The notes: generated from the letters alone by a model not told the origin. A stretch of 64,000 bases of DNA from an uncultured delta proteobacterium (GCA_963724765.1 CAVRVY010000003.1:1248001-1312000), one strand, 5' to 3'. Shown: positions 33,986-39,692, counted from the stretch's first letter. Numbers and translations are program-made.

Positions 33986-33993
33986 AGGGGTAA

Positions 33994-34064
33994 CCTCCAC
34001 GGTTGTTAGGGCGCTACCTTAACCCGAGCGGCACGACGGCGGCAATCGAAATGCGCCAGCCTCC
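33994..34064. repeat. 71-bp perfect direct repeat, copy 1
   Basis: cctccacggttgttagggcgctaccttaacccgagcggcacgacggcggcaatcgaaatgcgccagcctcc identical at 37999-38069. Confidence 0.95.
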
Positions 34065-34647
34065 CGCGTCGCCCGAAGCTGGACCAAAGTCCGATTGTCT
34101 CGGTTACGTCTCACAGGCATCATTTGCGGGATCTGATTGCGCGAAGGCGCCGAGGTTGTGCCTTAATAGCCGATTCCGAAGGATTCCGCAGTGATAGAGA
34201 GCCGCAGAGCATCAGGGCTGCGTGTCGGCGCGCGAGTTGTCGCGCTCGTGTTCGTGTTCGTCGCGCTTGGCTTGTCGCGAGCAACGGCGCAGCCAGCACC
34301 CGCACCGCTCAGCGCGGATGAAGCTACGGCGATCGGGACCGACGCATATATCTTCGGCTATCCGCTCGTCACGATGGAGTACTCGCGGCGCGTTCTGACC
34401 AACGTCGCAGAGCCTGCCGCGACCAAAGCGCCGATGGGCGATCTCGCGAGGGTGCGGTCTTACCCGAACGCCTCTTTCCGCGATGTCACAGCTCCTAATG
34501 CCGGGAATAATATACTTGACTAATCCCGTGTGCTAGGCTGAACGGGACGTGACAGGCTGGCCGACAAACCGCGTTCGTGTCCACTCATTTACGTATTACA
34601 TGGTGATCTAAGTGATCTTTAATGATCTTTTAGAATGTCTTAAGTAG

Positions 34648-34676
34648 TTGACTCAAGCGTGGCAAGCCGTTACGCT
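34648..34676 (+). promoter_or_regulatory. Sigma70-type promoter for the long-leader transcript of the small Cys-rich gene
   Basis: TTGACT-17 nt-TACGCT preceded by an AT-rich tract with three TGATCT repeats. Confidence 0.6.
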
Positions 34677-34764
34677 AAGAGCGGTGGCAGGGTGGGCAAG
34701 GTCTTAATCGGGCGCGCAGGGAGGATGAGTGGGGCCGCATTTCACAATCCAATAAGAGAATAAG

Positions 34765-34832
34765 AAAAAAGCCCCTGTCATTTTGCCGATGGCAGGGGCT
34801 TGGGTGCCTGACTGGCAGGCCGGATCCGATTC
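34765..34832 (-). ncRNA. Predicted ~68-nt antisense sRNA in IS cargo
   Basis: Own promoter TTGCAG-17-TAAGCT upstream; small hairpin GCCUG-CCAGU-CAGGC then AAGCCCCUGCCAU/AUGACAGGGGCUU stem ending in U6; no credible ORF. Confidence 0.6.
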
Positions 34833-34839
34833 AGAATTT

Positions 34840-34868
34840 AGCTTACCACCATAAAGGCAACCCTGCAA
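34840..34868 (-). promoter_or_regulatory. Sigma70-type promoter of predicted sRNA
   Basis: Minus strand TTGCAG (34863-34868), 17-nt spacer, extended -10 TGG-TAAGCT (34840-34845). Confidence 0.6.
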
Positions 34869-34933
34869 CGGGCTCGTGTGGTCAGGCCGCGAGCCAACGG
34901 GAAAGGTGTGCCTTATGGCCTACGATACATCAT

Positions 34934-34962
34934 AAAAAGACCGACGCCCCCGAAAGGGGGCG
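34934..34962 (-). terminator. Hairpin/terminator closing the minus-strand cargo transcript
   Basis: cgccccc-gaaa-gggggcg stem (34945-34962) with a T5 run 6 nt downstream on the minus strand. Confidence 0.5.
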
Positions 34963-35018
34963 GATTGCTCACAGGCAACTCGCAAAATTTAACAGCATCA
35001 AATAGGAAGCAAAAACAA

Positions 35019-35192
35019 ATGCCTAAACCAGGCGAAGTTAATCAAGTGTCCGGAATTTACCGTTCTGACTGCTGCGGAGTGGAGCGGGCTGTTCCGGAGT
35101 ATCATAAATTTCCACCCTGCGATAAACGCGGATTTTCCTGTAAGGGTGCGAATGCGACGTGGACTCTTGTCCGTCGCACTCAGACGAAATGA
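35019..35192 (+). CDS. Small Cys-rich YjzC-like / zinc-ribbon protein (57 aa), IS passenger
   Basis: MPKPGEVNQVSGIYRSDCCGVERAVPEYHKFPPCDKRGFSCKGANATWTLV fits the KPG...SGxY...FPP...WxLV pattern; AGGA RBS and A-rich spacer. Confidence 0.75.
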   Translation: MPKPGEVNQVSGIYRSDCCGVERAVPEYHKFPPCDKRGFSCKGANATWTLVRRTQTK

Positions 35193-35553
35193 ATCGATGA
35201 ATAGAGTCTGAGCTATAACCGAACAGAAGCCCCCGTATCCAGTGAGCGTGTGTGCCATGGATTGCGGGGGCTTCACCAAAAAGATGAAGCAGGCCAGCAA
35301 TGGCCCACTCGTACCGGTAAAACCCGAATCGCCACCAATCGCCATCGCGCAGAACGAATCCATAGACTTCCGATTCTCCCGCGATATCGATGCAACGATT
35401 CAAATCGTCTGAAAGACTTTCAATTTTTTCGGCGCTTAAAACGCGCCCGCCAATTTCGATGATAGGTTTGCCACCGCGCGCAACCCATTCAATTGCGGTA
35501 ACGGCGTGGCCAGTCTCATACTCTGTCAGGATCAGAAGGTCATGTAACGCCAC
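35038..35553 (-). CDS. Hypothetical protein (171 aa), IS passenger
   Basis: Start overlaps the upstream 57-aa ORF; globular-looking core ending HWIRGLLFGYSSDSIHRF; tail is antisense to the YjzC-like gene. Confidence 0.65.
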   Translation of the reverse strand: MALHDLLILTEYETGHAVTAIEWVARGGKPIIEIGGRVLSAEKIESLSDDLNRCIDIAGESEVYGFVLRDGDWWRFGFYRYEWAIAGLLHLFGEAPAIHGTHAHWIRGLLFGYSSDSIHRFISSECDGQESTSHSHPYRKIRVYRRVEIYDTPEQPAPLRSSQNGKFRTLD

Positions 35554-35713
35554 GTTTCTTTCTCTTGGATTTCGTCAGCTGTTCCGCAAGTTCATGTTTG
35601 GGTACAGCAACCAACGCGCGCATGGCTTTCGCGAACCGCTGAAATGCTGATTCTGGTGGTTGTTCGTCAGGCCGTGCTTCGTGCGTGACGTGCGTGACGG
35701 CTGAATCCTTCAT
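35540..35713 (-). CDS. Small basic hypothetical protein (57 aa) downstream of transposase
   Basis: MKDSAVTHVTHEARPDEQPPESAFQRFAKAMRALVAVPKHELAEQLTKSKRKKRGVT; TGA-TAGACT extended -10 six nt before ATG; below ORF-track cutoff. Confidence 0.6.
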   Translation of the reverse strand: MKDSAVTHVTHEARPDEQPPESAFQRFAKAMRALVAVPKHELAEQLTKSKRKKRGVT

Positions 35714-35752
35714 AACTTCAGTCTATCACGTTTTGGTCGCGTCAGTCTGCCT

Positions 35753-36721
35753 CTACTCTGCCGGAGTCGATGAGGGCTCAAACGCTGGCGCGCCGCCGCC
35801 GATAAGCTCTTTGTACGTCAAGCGCCGTCCTGTCACGTTGCCGAGCGCCTGAACAAAGCGCGCCGCATCCGTGCCCTTGCGCTCGTTGAATCGGAACGCC
35901 TGCTCATCGAGATAGCGGAACAGATGGAACGGCTCGACGCTGATGTAGGTTCCTTTGAGGCCGCGTTTTAGGCAGGACCAAAAGTTTTCGATTCGATTCG
36001 TGTGAACGTTGCCCTTAACGTAGGCTTCCGTGTGATTGATAACCTGATGAACATACTCACGGTCTAGGCCGTTGTACGCGACCCATTCATCGGTGAACAC
36101 TTCCGAACCGGCTTCAACGTGCTGGCGGATTTCATCCTGTAGCGTCCGGCGCTGAGTATTCGGAACATGCTTGATGCGGACTTTGCCGCTGTTGCGGTCG
36201 AGGATGCCCATCACAATCGCTTTACCGGCCCCGCCCGTGCCCCCGATTTTTCTTGCGCGATCTGCCTTGTGCATGAATCGGGCGAGGCCACCGATAAAAG
36301 TTTCGTCGGCTTCCACCTGACCGCTGACTTTCTCAAATGTTCCGGTCTGCATTGCCTTGCGAATCCGATGAAGCATAAACCATGCGGTCTTTTGTGTCAC
36401 GTCGAGATCGCGTGCAACTTCATAGCTGCTAATCCCGTTCTTGCAATTGACCAACAGCCAGACAGCCGGAAGCCACTTGTCGAGACCGATGGGCGAATCC
36501 TCAAAGATGGTTCCAACCTTAACGGAGAACTGACGCTTCGGATGCTTTGAACTGCATTGCCAGCGGCTTTGATTGGCAAGGAAGCCAACCTTATCACTTC
36601 CGCATGTCGGACACTTGATGCCGTCCGGCCAGCGGATAGTCGCCATAAACTCGCGGCAGTTATCGGCGTTCTTAAAGAACCGAACCGCGTCGATCAACGT
36701 TCTCGGTATTCCTGCGTCCAT
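35753..36721 (-). CDS. IS1595-family (ISXO2-like) DDE transposase
   Basis: RWPDGIKCPTCG Zn-ribbon, FSVKVGTIFEDS, VTQKTAWFMLHRIR HTH, VEADETFIGG, FTDEW, INH, HTNRIENFWS, YLDEQAFRFN. Confidence 0.96.
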   Translation of the reverse strand: MDAGIPRTLIDAVRFFKNADNCREFMATIRWPDGIKCPTCGSDKVGFLANQSRWQCSSKHPKRQFSVKVGTIFEDSPIGLDKWLPAVWLLVNCKNGISSYEVARDLDVTQKTAWFMLHRIRKAMQTGTFEKVSGQVEADETFIGGLARFMHKADRARKIGGTGGAGKAIVMGILDRNSGKVRIKHVPNTQRRTLQDEIRQHVEAGSEVFTDEWVAYNGLDREYVHQVINHTEAYVKGNVHTNRIENFWSCLKRGLKGTYISVEPFHLFRYLDEQAFRFNERKGTDAARFVQALGNVTGRRLTYKELIGGGAPAFEPSSTPAE

Positions 36722-36727
36722 GTCAGA

Positions 36728-36756
36728 ATCATAGCGAACGAGCGAGGATTAGTCAA
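36728..36756 (-). promoter_or_regulatory. Transposase promoter (leaderless), -35 inside TIR
   Basis: TTGACT-17 nt-TATGAT, 6 nt, then ATG; no RBS. Confidence 0.75.
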
Positions 36757-37998
36757 GTATATTATTCCCCTAATGCCGACACTCTCTACACCTTCGCGTG
36801 GCTCGATCTCAGCAAGGAGCCATACGTGCTCAGCATTCCGGATGCGCATGGACGTTATTACCTGTTTCCGATGCTCGACGCGTGGACGACCGTGTTCCAG
36901 GTCCCCGGCAAGCGCACGACAGGCACTGGTCCGCAGACCTATGCGATCACCGGTCCCGGATGGTCGGGCACGCTTCCCGCTGGCGTGACCGAGTACAAGT
37001 CGCCGACCAACCTCGTCTGGATTCTTGGACGCATCTACTGCACCGGCACGCCGAAAGATTATAAGGCAGTGCATGCGTTGCAGGACAAAATCACGCTCGT
37101 CCCGCTCAGCTCGTACGGCAAGCCGTACACGCCGGCGGCTGGAACGGTCGATCCGAACATCGACGTGAAAACTGCGGTGCGAGCCCAGGTGAATGCGCTC
37201 GACATCGCGGCGTACTTCAACCTGATGGCGCAGTTGATGAAAGATAACCCGCCCACCGCGGAGGATGCGCCGATGATGGCGCGGATGGCGAAGATCGGAA
37301 TCGTGCCGGGGAAGGCGTTCGATATGACAAAGCTCTCACCCGATGCGCAACAGGCGCTAAAGGCTGTTCCCAAGGCCGCCGTCGCCAGGGTTATGGGCTA
37401 CTTCAAGGACGCTGGTAAGCGCGAAAATAGCTGGACGTTCCTTACCAAGACAGGAATCTATGGAACCGACTATCTCAATCGCGCTTTTGTCACCGCGATT
37501 GGTCTTGGCGCGAACCGTCCGCAGGACGCGGTCTATCCAACCTCTGAGATGGATGCCGGGGGAAAACCCTACTCGGGCGCCAACAAGTACGTCACGCGTT
37601 TCGACAAGGGAAAGTTGCCTCCCGCGGAGGGCTTCTGGTCGATGACGATGTACGACGCGAATTATTTCTTCGTGAATAATCCGCTCAATCGCTATACCAT
37701 CAGCGCGCGCAACAAGCTGAAGCAAAATGCCGACGGGTCTATCGACCTGTACATGCAGCACGAAAATCCCGGCAAGGACAAGGAATCCAACTGGCTGCCC
37801 GCTCCCGCAGGCAAGTTCGTTCTGATGCTGCGGATGTACTGGCCCAAGGAGACTCCGCCCTCGCTGCTGGACGGGACGTGGACGATACCGGGGGTGAAGC
37901 AGGCGTCGTAGTCAGCTCGGCGGGTTTCGAACAAGCTGGGAGGAAGGTCTCAACGGCCGCCGGCGCTACGCGGCGGCACCGCCGCTCACCAGGAGTAG

Positions 37999-38069
37999 CC
38001 TCCACGGTTGTTAGGGCGCTACCTTAACCCGAGCGGCACGACGGCGGCAATCGAAATGCGCCAGCCTCC
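37999..38069. repeat. 71-bp perfect direct repeat, copy 2
   Basis: Identical to 33994-34064. Confidence 0.95.
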
Positions 38070-38219: not shown

Positions 38220-39692
38220 ATGTGGTCCGACAAACTGCTTGGCGCGATCTTAGAGCAGCGTTATTCGAATACATGGCCGGAAAAGTTCAAAGCAGGCTTC
38301 GAGGCTCTTTTCGGTAGCGACGGTGGCCGTTATCCAGATAGCGCGAAACGCCAAGTGACGCTGCGCGCGCCCGCGCCTTCGGAAGATAGCGAGGGAATCA
38401 TACCATTTGCCGCGCTCATTCATCCGAGCAATCCCAGTTCGGGACCCTACGGTGGAACCTCGCTTGCTGTTTTCCCGGGCGATGACACGCCTTGTCTGAT
38501 CTCGCTTGTGGTCGGGACCAACGGACTTGCGCCGGACGAAGGGATTTTGGGGCGCCCCGGACACGCGCGCAAGGCAGAGGCAATTTGTGCATGGCTGAAC
38601 AGCGGGAGACGAAAACGCGTCGCGTGGTCGAAGCACGATCCGACTCGCTTGGATCAACGTATTCCGGCCGAGGTGGCCGAGGAGTTTGGGAAATACTCGG
38701 GGGCGATAGGAAAGTACGGTCACGTTCTCTATGCCATCTACGCACCAGAGGCCGACAAGAGCCAGACGTTGGAAGCGCTAACCGCATTTCTGGACTTCAT
38801 GTTTGATGAGCGGGGCGTTCATCCGCTCTCGCGCTTTGAAGCAGATGCCCGTGAGATTCGGACGCGCTGGTTTCACCACCTGATGCCTCACGTTTCAAAC
38901 GACCAAGTCGCTGAACTTCTGAACGAACGGCATTACGTGATTTTGCAGGGTCCCCCTGGAACGGGTAAGACCCACATGGCACGCGAGTTGATCACGACGG
39001 ATTACCAAAACCGCGGCAGGACCATTCAATTTCACGCGAACACGACTTACGAGAACTTCGTCGGCGGGTTGGCCCCAATAACCTCGTCCGACAGTCTCGG
39101 ATTTCAATTTGCCCCGCAGAAGGGTTTCCTGACCCTAGCCGCTGAACAAGCGCGCGCTTCGAGCGGAAAGTATCTGCTGCATGTCGATGAGATAAATCGA
39201 GCTGATTTGTCGAAGGTCCTCGGCGAGGCAATCTATTTGCTTGAGCCCGACGCGTTGGACGGGCGCGTCATCAACTTGCCTTACAAATTCGAACCACCGA
39301 CCGGAGATCGCCTCTCGCTGCCAGACAACTTGCACATACTTGGCACTATGAATACTTCGGATCGCAGTCTCGCGATCGTGGACATCGCGATTCGGCGACG
39401 GTTTGCGTTCGCAAAGCTCTGGCCGCAGATATCGGTGGTTGAGCGCGAGGGCTGCGACCTCATGAAGCAGGCGTTTCAAGCACTGCTCACCATTTTTGTC
39501 GACCACGCCACCGAAGACGCGATGGACCTGGTCCCAGGTCATTCGTATTTCTTGGAGTCGAACGAACCAAAGGCGCGAAGGCGACTAAAGACCACGCTGA
39601 AACCACTGCTGGAGGACTATCTCACACAGGGGTACGTCTCATCGTTCGCGGAAGCCGTGCGCGCGTACCTGCAATGGATCGATTCGCTGTGA
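38220..39692 (+). CDS. mcrB: McrB-family AAA+ GTPase with atypical N-terminal domain
   Basis: Walker A QGPPGTGKT, QFHANTTYENFVGG, Walker B VDEINRA, GTMNTSDRS McrB signature, AIRRRF, PGHSYF. Confidence 0.9.
   Translation: MWSDKLLGAILEQRYSNTWPEKFKAGFEALFGSDGGRYPDSAKRQVTLRAPAPSEDSEGIIPFAALIHPSNPSSGPYGGTSLAVFPGDDTPCLISLVVGTNGLAPDEGILGRPGHARKAEAICAWLNSGRRKRVAWSKHDPTRLDQRIPAEVAEEFGKYSGAIGKYGHVLYAIYAPEADKSQTLEALTAFLDFMFDERGVHPLSRFEADAREIRTRWFHHLMPHVSNDQVAELLNERHYVILQGPPGTGKTHMARELITTDYQNRGRTIQFHANTTYENFVGGLAPITSSDSLGFQFAPQKGFLTLAAEQARASSGKYLLHVDEINRADLSKVLGEAIYLLEPDALDGRVINLPYKFEPPTGDRLSLPDNLHILGTMNTSDRSLAIVDIAIRRRFAFAKLWPQISVVEREGCDLMKQAFQALLTIFVDHATEDAMDLVPGHSYFLESNEPKARRRLKTTLKPLLEDYLTQGYVSSFAEAVRAYLQWIDSL

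Follow-up and report, generated by a model that had tools for sequence, protein, structure and literature searches.

An IS1595-family transposon with a passenger module of two convergent genes that overlap on opposite strands

Introduction

What does a small transposon carry when its passengers are two genes that read through one another on opposite strands? The question is raised by a stretch of 64,000 nucleotides from an uncultured delta proteobacterium (GCA_963724765.1, CAVRVY010000003.1:1248001-1312000; hereafter the window, to whose first letter all coordinates refer), in which an insertion sequence (IS) of the IS1595 family, 2,267 bp long (34503-36769), lies between perfect 24-nt inverted repeats. 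Besides its transposase gene, which takes up 969 of the 2267 bp, the element holds three small open reading frames (ORFs), here called orf171, zn57 and orf57. An earlier note on the window had described an IS1595 element with cargo, over half of it other than transposase, and had taken the three small ORFs to be genes. All of this was borne out: the repeats, the target duplication, the transposase domains and a second copy define the element, and relatives were found for orf171 in 17 clusters, for zn57 in 15 and for orf57 in 14.

The cargo proper, as comparison with relatives indicates, is a module of two genes, orf171 and zn57, and it belongs to an unrecognised module family that appears to travel with IS1595 and IS1-like elements. 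The anatomy of the element and the dual coding of the module can be stated with high confidence. The explanation that we favour, at a probability slightly short of even, goes further: on a recently active IS1595 transposon, the two messenger RNAs (mRNAs) of the passenger module would be mutually antisense, and their products perhaps related as toxin and antidote. Conserved antisense protein-coding overlaps are seldom met with in bacteria, and those that have been reported are often called into question. The present one pairs strong purifying selection on one frame with a depletion of stop codons, about five-fold, on the other, together with an internal negative control, and offers a tractable model for the origin and regulation of antisense gene pairs that can be cloned as a 1.2-kb piece. 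Neither the module, nor its antisense embedding, nor its link to two transposase families was found described in the literature listings searched, which is not a claim of absence from print.

The element moves as a unit

The element is a cargo-bearing transposon of the IS1595 family that has been active recently. Its transposase (35753-36721, minus strand) matches PF12762 (E 1.2e-40) and PF12760 (E 4.4e-10) in Pfam and NF033547 in NCBIfam (E 1.2e-57, 195 bits against a cut-off of 75), and so joins a DDE transposase of the ISXO2/IS1595 type to an N-terminal zinc ribbon; its ends are inverted repeats, and it is flanked by a target-site duplication of 8 bp, a length characteristic of the IS1595 family. 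Within the window the 17-nt core of the terminal repeat occurs at the element's two ends only, where 0.03 occurrences would be expected by chance. A second copy stands on a different contig of the host genome, its sole difference being a 1-nt insertion or deletion adjoining the left repeat, and is flanked by TAATTTTG at one end and CAATTTTG at the other (7 of 8 bases match). A contig of metagenome run X1 joins 34493 to 36769, which gives the empty site, and a further contig of the same run spans the junction of the second copy. At least half of the element's sampled words are present in 8 public runs out of 20 listed, and these 8 are metagenomes of soil, peat and sediment from several studies. 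Taken together, the inverted repeats, the duplication, the near-identical second copy and the empty site imply that the 2.27-kb unit transposes whole and is polymorphic in nature. In the window it splits a DUF1254/DUF1214 gene into halves at 34191-34523 and 36826-37911.

As an IS, the element is a new but unremarkable addition to a known family, in which ISfinder's subgroups ISNwi1 and ISNha5 are, we presume, passenger-bearing relatives. With IS1595-family elements that carry passengers it shares the DDE_Tnp_IS1595 domain, the N-terminal zinc ribbon, the inverted repeats, the 8-bp duplication and the presence of extra internal genes. It differs in that even the nearest transposases in a set of 72,556 plasmid records do not exceed 42% identity to its own, and in that its passenger pair falls in no family described in Pfam, NCBIfam or PADLOC.

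A two-gene module of constant geometry

Relatives of orf171 were found in 17 other clusters at 42–58% identity, with 67–100% of the query covered and full length in most, and its profile, searched exhaustively against 1.84 billion representatives, returned 131 clusters at E <= 0.001; for zn57 there are 15 clusters at 61–82% identity. By way of orf171, 48 loci were fetched, 5 from species genomes and 43 from metagenomes, and in 43 of the 48 a zn57 homologue lies opposite the 3' end of the orf171 homologue. The earlier note had proposed that the cargo parts be checked for co-conservation. For orf171 and zn57 this succeeds, and for the other two parts it fails: neither a relative of orf57 (0 of 48) nor the region assigned to a small RNA (sRNA) is found in these loci. 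The metagenome-assembled genomes that bear the module are labelled Acidobacteriota (three, including Candidatus Acidoferrum and Terriglobia), Burkholderiales and 'delta proteobacterium'. Clustering at 95% nucleotide identity sorts the modules into 37 clusters, and zn57 is present in 31 clusters other than that of the window.

In the window the last ~50 codons of orf171 are antisense to zn57. In all 44 modules, the window's counted, the frame of orf171 stands in the same relation to that of zn57, and in 27 of the 44 the orf171 stop lies 19 nt inside zn57. This constancy spans considerable divergence, the identity to the window's protein ranging across loci from 37 to 88% for zn57 (most 59–84%) and from 40 to 56% for orf171. 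The other five loci are of three kinds: two encode complete proteins that consist of the core only and have neither a tail nor a zn57 (L053 and L055, of 129 and 137 aa), one stops at a contig edge (L054), and two are N-terminal fragments (L057 and L058).

The module family is rare. The orf171 profile has 0 matches in 400 other genomes of the phylum, and by tblastn orf171 matched nothing in either the 50,697 phage records or the 72,556 plasmid records; a scan of the species-genome collection, which sought two peptide patterns only, gave the 5 species-genome loci mentioned above. In 60 related genomes the cargo DNA meets, beyond the element's own two copies, a single 38-nt match at chance level.

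Two irregular loci may be recorded here. In L015 (4417-6213) the module is split by an inserted ORF of 545 aa, whose location and length suggest a transposase and which severs the orf171 tail and the zn57 3' end. In L055 (498-680) an ORF of 60 aa with a CxxC...C motif lies just upstream of the core-only gene on the same strand, and might be a non-overlapping counterpart of zn57.

Selection on the overlap

Which of the two frames does selection see? Over the overlap, codon-position entropy in the zn57 frame is 0.65, 0.55 and 1.31 for first, second and third positions, the pattern of purifying selection, and the orf171 core has a normal pattern as well (0.81, 0.66 and 1.59). Read in the frame of the orf171 tail, the same nucleotides give 0.65, 1.22 and 0.68, with the second position varying most. 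By these entropies the protein under selection in the overlap is zn57.

The tail frame nonetheless appears to be held open. Beyond the usual stop, that antisense frame is interrupted by 5 stops in all among the 28 distinct zn57 sequences, against 23.8 ± 4.4 expected, a depletion of about five-fold; the expectation derives from synonymous recoding of zn57 with the codon usage of the orf171 core in 1000 simulations, 0 of which gave 5 or fewer. In the other two antisense frames the stops observed are 59 and 11, against 55.4 and 18.5 expected, and the same test applied as a control to the non-overlapping orf171 core finds 129 against 125.7. Four-fold sites diverge by 0.58 in zn57, compared with 0.71 in the core. 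In this sense orf171 and zn57 are an antisense dual-coding pair: the two frames stay open in divergent relatives, and purifying selection acts on at least one of them.

One might still regard the overlap as incidental, with zn57 the only functional protein in these 155 nt, the tail a tolerated read-through, the antisense arrangement devoid of regulatory meaning and the module a plain passenger. The amino acids of the tail are indeed not independently constrained, as the variable second positions attest; the usual position of the orf171 stop follows from the conserved Ile/Val-Asn codons of zn57; core-only relatives exist; and the tail is mostly of low confidence in structure prediction. Such a view must nevertheless accommodate a stop depletion that is specific to the tail frame and to the overlap, and a geometry that is kept where the orf171 proteins are 40–56% identical to the window's. 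Moreover, convergent transcription across the start of a partner interferes physically, whatever the proteins do. We consider an incidental overlap unlikely.

Two transcripts that would cross

Where the transcripts of the two genes begin and end can be read in part from the sequence, and the signals are collected with the other features in Table 1. By these signs zn57 looks like an independent unit of transcription and translation. A purine-rich GGAG, GAGG or AGGA stands 5–12 nt before the start in 29 of 29 distinct zn57 genes, and in several relatives TATAAT occurs ~30 nt upstream of the ATG (both read by eye), which argues for short zn57 leaders. The 110 nt past the zn57 stop, which fall within the variable orf171 linker, fold into G+C-rich hairpins at z <= -2 in 19 of 28 loci (mean z -2.6, relative to mononucleotide shuffles), and several of the hairpins downstream of zn57 are followed by a T-run (likewise by eye). 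On the minus strand, the orf171 transcript probably ends at the hairpin at 34945-34962; as this hairpin lies 76 nt past the orf171 stop, that transcript would cross the start region of zn57.

In the RNA-library run X20 a 156-nt contig corresponds to 35010-35165 with 1 mismatch, and since synonymous sites diverge strongly between modules, it should come from this element or a very close copy, although such a contig cannot show strand, ends or level and an RNA library may hold DNA. Beyond the contig that covers zn57, what X20 covers of the element at a likeness of at least 90% consists of short pieces resembling the transposases of relatives, and missing contig cover proves nothing.

Given convergent transcripts that overlap in this way, each mRNA would be a perfect antisense of the other, and expression of one should occlude or silence the other. 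In the scheme that we favour, orf171 and zn57 would be transcribed convergently, the orf171 transcript running across the zn57 start to the terminator at 34945-34962 and the zn57 transcript ending at the hairpin inside orf171 (35226-35274). Suppression, whether by promoter occlusion, by collision of polymerases or by cleavage of the duplex, would then make of the pair an either/or switch. The antisense RNA-level control for which the earlier note had argued is in this sense plausible, and the actual antisense partner of zn57 would be the orf171 mRNA itself. That such mutual control operates is, in our estimation, evenly balanced.

Table 1. Features of the element and its target site (window coordinates)
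Feature	Coordinates	Strand	Remarks
Left target-site duplication copy, 8 bp	34495..34502	.	CTAATGCC; from direct-repeat search and comparison with second copy
IRL, left terminal inverted repeat, 24 nt	34503..34526	+	100% complementary to right repeat
~420 bp without assigned function (region of the 'leader' and 'sRNA' of the earlier note)	34527..34944	.	no match in module loci, related genomes, Rfam or L026
Intrinsic-terminator-like hairpin with T-run	34945..34962	-	7 G-C pairs, tail TCGGTCTTTT; 76 nt past orf171 stop
Shine-Dalgarno-like AGGAAG	35004..35009	+	9 nt before zn57 ATG
zn57, basic Cys-rich zinc-ribbon-like protein, 57 aa	35019..35192	+	frame of the overlap under purifying selection
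Two-strand coding overlap, 155 nt (orf171 tail and zn57)	35038..35192	.	constant frame relation, stop depletion
orf171	35038..35553	-	acidic alpha/beta core 35179-35553 (residues ~1-125) and basic tail 35038-35178 antisense to zn57
G+C-rich hairpin, candidate 3' end of zn57 transcript	35226..35274	+	34 nt past zn57 stop, in variable orf171 linker
orf57, small basic protein of the IS backbone	35540..35713	-	motif SAFQRFAKxMRALVAVPKxE; relatives beside IS1595 transposases
IS1595-family transposase, 322 aa	35753..36721	-	PF12762, PF12760, NF033547 matches
Promoter-like site of transposase, TTGACT-17-TATGAT	36728..36756	-	10/12 consensus matches; -35 within right repeat
IRR, right terminal inverted repeat, 24 nt	36746..36769	-	pairs perfectly with IRL
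Right target-site duplication copy	36770..36777	.	CTAATGCC; from direct-repeat search and comparison with second copy

A fixed backbone and an exchangeable cargo slot

The third small gene, orf57, which overlaps the start of orf171 by 14 nt, had been joined to it in the earlier note as one cargo unit. Both are real genes, yet orf57 belongs to the backbone of the IS and not to the cargo. It has relatives in 14 other clusters (56–88% identity) and itself matches nothing in Pfam, NCBIfam, PADLOC or PHROGs; of 300 further genomes from its class, 31 gave a hit to its profile (one of these, G628, is counted here, while its locus, L063, was left out of the loci examined). In 13 of 18 orf57 loci an IS1595 transposase 37–71% identical to the window's is present, with the small gene at the transposase 3' end. 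It is this adjacency, together with the absence of orf57 from the loci fetched through orf171, that places the gene outside the cargo.

Four sister elements with both repeats visible, L003 among them, measure 2.4–2.7 kb. Constant in the sisters are the transposase and a small protein with an F-x-R-F...VPK motif; the remainder differs. The variable part holds DUF3800 with HNH in L066, DUF3800 as the sole named family in L003, VRR-NUC with HNH in L064, a SocA/Panacea antitoxin domain with a 91-aa partner in L073, a proteasome-like protein in L078, and proteins without a family in L075 and L077. This IS1595 subgroup thus consists of a fixed backbone, the transposase and the small 'VAVPK' protein, and an exchangeable cargo slot, which is often filled by nuclease or toxin-antitoxin genes.

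The orf57-family protein is always encoded at the 3' end of the transposase gene, and its orientation varies (L064-L078, L003): the two genes are co-directional in the window and in L077, and convergent in L073, L075 and L078. L003 (51-2468, on contig C4 around 1734872) is a third IS1595 element of the window's own genome. Compared with the window's, its transposase region shows 70% identity at the DNA level and 69% at the protein level, and its cargo comprises the DUF3800 protein and a 106-aa ORF in place of the orf171/zn57 module.

Transposases beside the module

Proximity to a transposase could be judged in 28 clusters, 3 of the 31 having too little flanking DNA. In 13 of the 28 the zn57 start has a transposase, of IS1595 type or IS1-like, no more than 500 nt away, and in a further 4 one at 0.9–3.1 kb; in the other 11 there is none in the DNA at hand. 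The IS1-like transposases match NF033558 at E 5e-14 to 7e-21, below the cut-off of that model. At least five lineages are involved, two of them IS1-like and three of IS1595 type, the last being 33–38% identical to one another or to the window's transposase. The layouts differ: transposase and then zn57 on one strand in L013 and the IS1-like cases, a divergent arrangement in L033, L036 and L044, and, in the window, a module at the element's far end. Inverted repeats enclose transposase and module in the window, in L013 (26 nt) and in L044 (24 nt), and no convincing ones were seen around the IS1-like transposase and module in L028/L030, L041, L045, L049 or L050. In L044 (655-700) a palindrome between zn57 and the transposase gene resembles abutted IRL-like and IRR-like IS ends, and the module may there sit on a non-autonomous unit joined to an IS.

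Could the module be an accessory of transposition, with zn57 a small zinc-binding, DNA-binding regulator or factor of target choice and orf171 a modulator? The precedent is InsA of IS1, a small zinc-finger regulator encoded by the IS, and zn57 resembles it in being small, Cys-rich, basic and placed beside an IS1-like or IS1595 DDE transposase. That the module adjoins transposases of several lineages, often co-directionally and just downstream of the transposase gene, would suit such a role. On the other hand, zn57 bears no similarity to the IS1-like transposase and has no helix-turn-helix in its model, and the orientation and position of the module relative to the transposase change from the window to L013 and to L033/L044. 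Sister elements of the same IS subgroup, moreover, transpose with quite different genes in the slot, and 11 of the 28 clusters come without a nearby transposase. An accessory role in transposition is improbable on this evidence.

The two proteins

The predicted structure of orf171 has a mean predicted local distance difference test score (pLDDT) of 75.4, reaching ~90 at residues 11–90, with an alpha/beta core that extends to about residue 125; in the tail, low in confidence for the most part, a short hairpin at 139–151 is the exception. The best structural match to the core is PDB 2guk, a conserved protein of Porphyromonas gingivalis (Z 7.6, 109 of 112 residues aligned, root-mean-square deviation 3.8; by Foldseek, probability 0.99 and E 0.024), with which it shares 7–13% sequence identity and which is itself without known function. 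Residues 1–83 recall R3H/KhpB/IF3-C-like folds at Z 5–6, and the core matches NleE at Z 5.1, all these values, that of 2guk included, falling within the range that the tool calls common. NleE methylates the cysteines of zinc fingers; we mention this as a possible lead and build nothing on it.

The model of zn57 (pLDDT 82.5) consists of three strands, and a fold search with it returned nothing significant (best Foldseek E 0.44, Z 3.6). G12, Y14, C19, F31, P32, C34, W48 and L50 are invariant in the family. Two canonical CxxC knuckles are found only in L013, and a CxxC second knuckle in L034, L049, L051 and L052; most members have S-x-C-C and C-x6-C instead. The L013 homologue, with its CxxC...CxxC, resembles the zinc-ribbon domain DUF1451 (PF07295; E 1.4e-5) at 25.8 bits, just below the curated cut-off of 26.1, whereas the window's zn57 and the homologues in L012 and L014 have no Pfam match and the knuckles are replaced in most members.

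In PADLOC-DB 2.0 neither the transposase nor orf171, orf57 or zn57 matches any family at E <= 1; the ESM Atlas holds unnamed clusters only (best score 0.91); a sequence search of the PDB with the orf171 and zn57 profiles found nothing below E 0.18; and Pfam was of no use for 20 of the 131 distant orf171 relatives, picked for extra length or divergence. The isoelectric points (pI) are 9.3 for zn57, 5.3 for the orf171 core and 9.0 for its tail. With a grand average of hydropathy (GRAVY) of -0.76 and a top 19-aa hydropathy window of 0.07, zn57 is hydrophilic and no membrane peptide.

What the module may do

The opposite charges of zn57 and the orf171 core suggest how a control at the level of RNA might be joined to one at the level of protein: the core, being acidic, may bind zn57, which is basic, and neutralise it in the manner of a toxin-antidote or immunity pair, and the module would then be an addiction or conflict device that benefits the mobile element. 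Such a role accords with the cargo of sister elements, in which this slot holds nuclease and toxin-antitoxin genes. Argued from context as it is, a toxin-antidote or conflict role strikes us as doubtful. In a scenario that reaches further, selection would keep the orf171 frame open across zn57, and the ribosomes of one strand and the transcription of the other would set the state of the cell; IS1595 and IS1-like transposons would have captured the module repeatedly, since its presence hinders their loss or ties their activity to that state. The full scenario, a new type of mobile-element switch in which two protein-coding mRNAs serve as complete mutual cis-antisense regulators and their products as effector and antidote, we think unlikely to hold in its entirety.

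Several results weigh against this explanation and belong beside it. Neither orf171 nor zn57 has a Pfam, NCBIfam or PADLOC match, nor any known toxicity, binding or enzymatic activity, and the fold matches are weak (best Z 7.6 for orf171 and 3.6 for zn57). Prediction of a complex of orf171, zn57 and Zn gave 0.63, 0.00 and 0.00 in three runs without controls, which speaks neither for nor against binding. Contrary to a simple view of orf171 as the effector, zn57 is the better conserved of the two, and either protein, or neither, may be the harmful one. An earlier stop in the tail frame occurs in 5 of the 28 sequences, and these stops together with the core-only relatives L053 and L055 imply that some of the family can do without the tail. 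Because the sequences are related by descent, the statistics of stop depletion overstate their independence. To these may be added the 11 clusters without a transposase and the limits of the X20 contig given above.

Among the known systems that come closest are type I toxin-antitoxin loci such as bsrG/SR4, txpA/RatA and par of pAD1, in which antitoxin RNA and toxin mRNA overlap at the 3' end of the latter. The likeness lies in convergent transcription, a long perfect 3' complementarity and carriage on mobile elements; the difference is that both RNAs here encode conserved proteins, neither of them a small hydrophobic peptide, and that no non-coding sRNA is supported. In a type I locus the toxin is small and hydrophobic, which zn57 is not. 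The antitoxin there is a non-coding antisense RNA; here the proposed sRNA region is non-conserved, its promoter was not found by consensus scan, and the only antisense partner supported is a protein-coding mRNA, though an RNA confined to this element may yet be encoded in that region. Nor does the pair have the organisation of a type II system, with adjacent co-transcribed genes, orf171 and zn57 being convergent and overlapping and forming no operon. SR1/SR1P and SgrS/SgrT, dual-function RNAs that regulate and also encode a small protein, offer another comparison. Like them, zn57 would have a short transcript (at most a few hundred nt, as we infer) that combines base-pairing with a small conserved protein. 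Unlike in them, pairing would be in cis and complete, and the coding frame of the target crosses the small gene.

The module might alternatively be cargo for defence against phages (abortive infection) or for anti-defence, and no addiction module at all. Its other neighbours lend this some colour, since at other loci they include MmeI, GmrSD, Dam- and Dcm-type methylases, Fic, Gp49-like proteins and prophage packaging genes; a small terminase subunit, P63C and a DnaB-like helicase are likewise among the neighbours. Moreover, zn57 matches the phage family phrog_15514, of unassigned function, at E 2.3e-8 (PHROGs; orf171 has no match there), and the module or a remnant of it occurs on two viral contigs. 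The earlier note had recommended a look at defence databases and phage sequences; PADLOC returned no family, and the tblastn search found no match in the phage or plasmid records. The genomic context, too, is anecdotal, being without a background comparison. A defence role seems very unlikely.

The proposed leader and small RNA

There remains the RNA model of the earlier note itself: a structured leader of ~335 nt before the 57-aa gene, a cis-antisense sRNA of ~68 nt against it, and a separate leaderless unit of orf57 and orf171, in the layout of a type I toxin locus. In its favour, the plus strand at 34685-35040 folds more stably than shuffles (z -4.0), a minus-strand terminator-like hairpin followed by a T-run (34769-34801, within the non-conserved part) could terminate a small RNA, and weak hexamers can be seen by eye at the proposed promoter sites. 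That fold, however, owes its stability largely to two hairpins that are terminators of the minus strand, and the minus-strand stretch with the proposed sRNA folds like shuffles (z -1.3). The region 34527-35018 has no nucleotide match in the 48 module loci and no alignment with the nearest relative, L026, and Rfam gave no match at E <= 1 over 34000-37300. In relatives zn57 lies 70–220 nt from the neighbouring transposase gene, and TATAAT ~30 nt upstream in several points to short leaders; together with a non-conserved leader region and a hydrophilic product, this tells against the type I layout. A consensus scan found 4 promoter-like sites against 1.3 ± 1.3 in shuffles, recovering of the four promoters that had been predicted the one in the right repeat (36756-36728, 10/12) and missing the other three. 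The model is highly improbable, although element-specific RNAs may be encoded in 34527-35018. The hairpin at 34769-34801 lies ~140 nt beyond the likely orf171 terminator.

Surroundings of the element

The earlier note had also drawn a link to a nearby McrBC system, which finds no support, the second copy of the element being situated elsewhere. The neighbour in question is a 490-aa AAA_5 (McrB-like) ATPase at 38220-39692, 1.45 kb from the right end of the IS. Closer by, a direct repeat of 79 nt (97% identical; 33986-34064 and 37991-38069) brackets the disrupted DUF1254/DUF1214 gene. It has no further copies in the genome, and its two copies would be ~1.7 kb apart if the IS were removed; the bracket could mark a small gene cassette or the boundary of a duplication.

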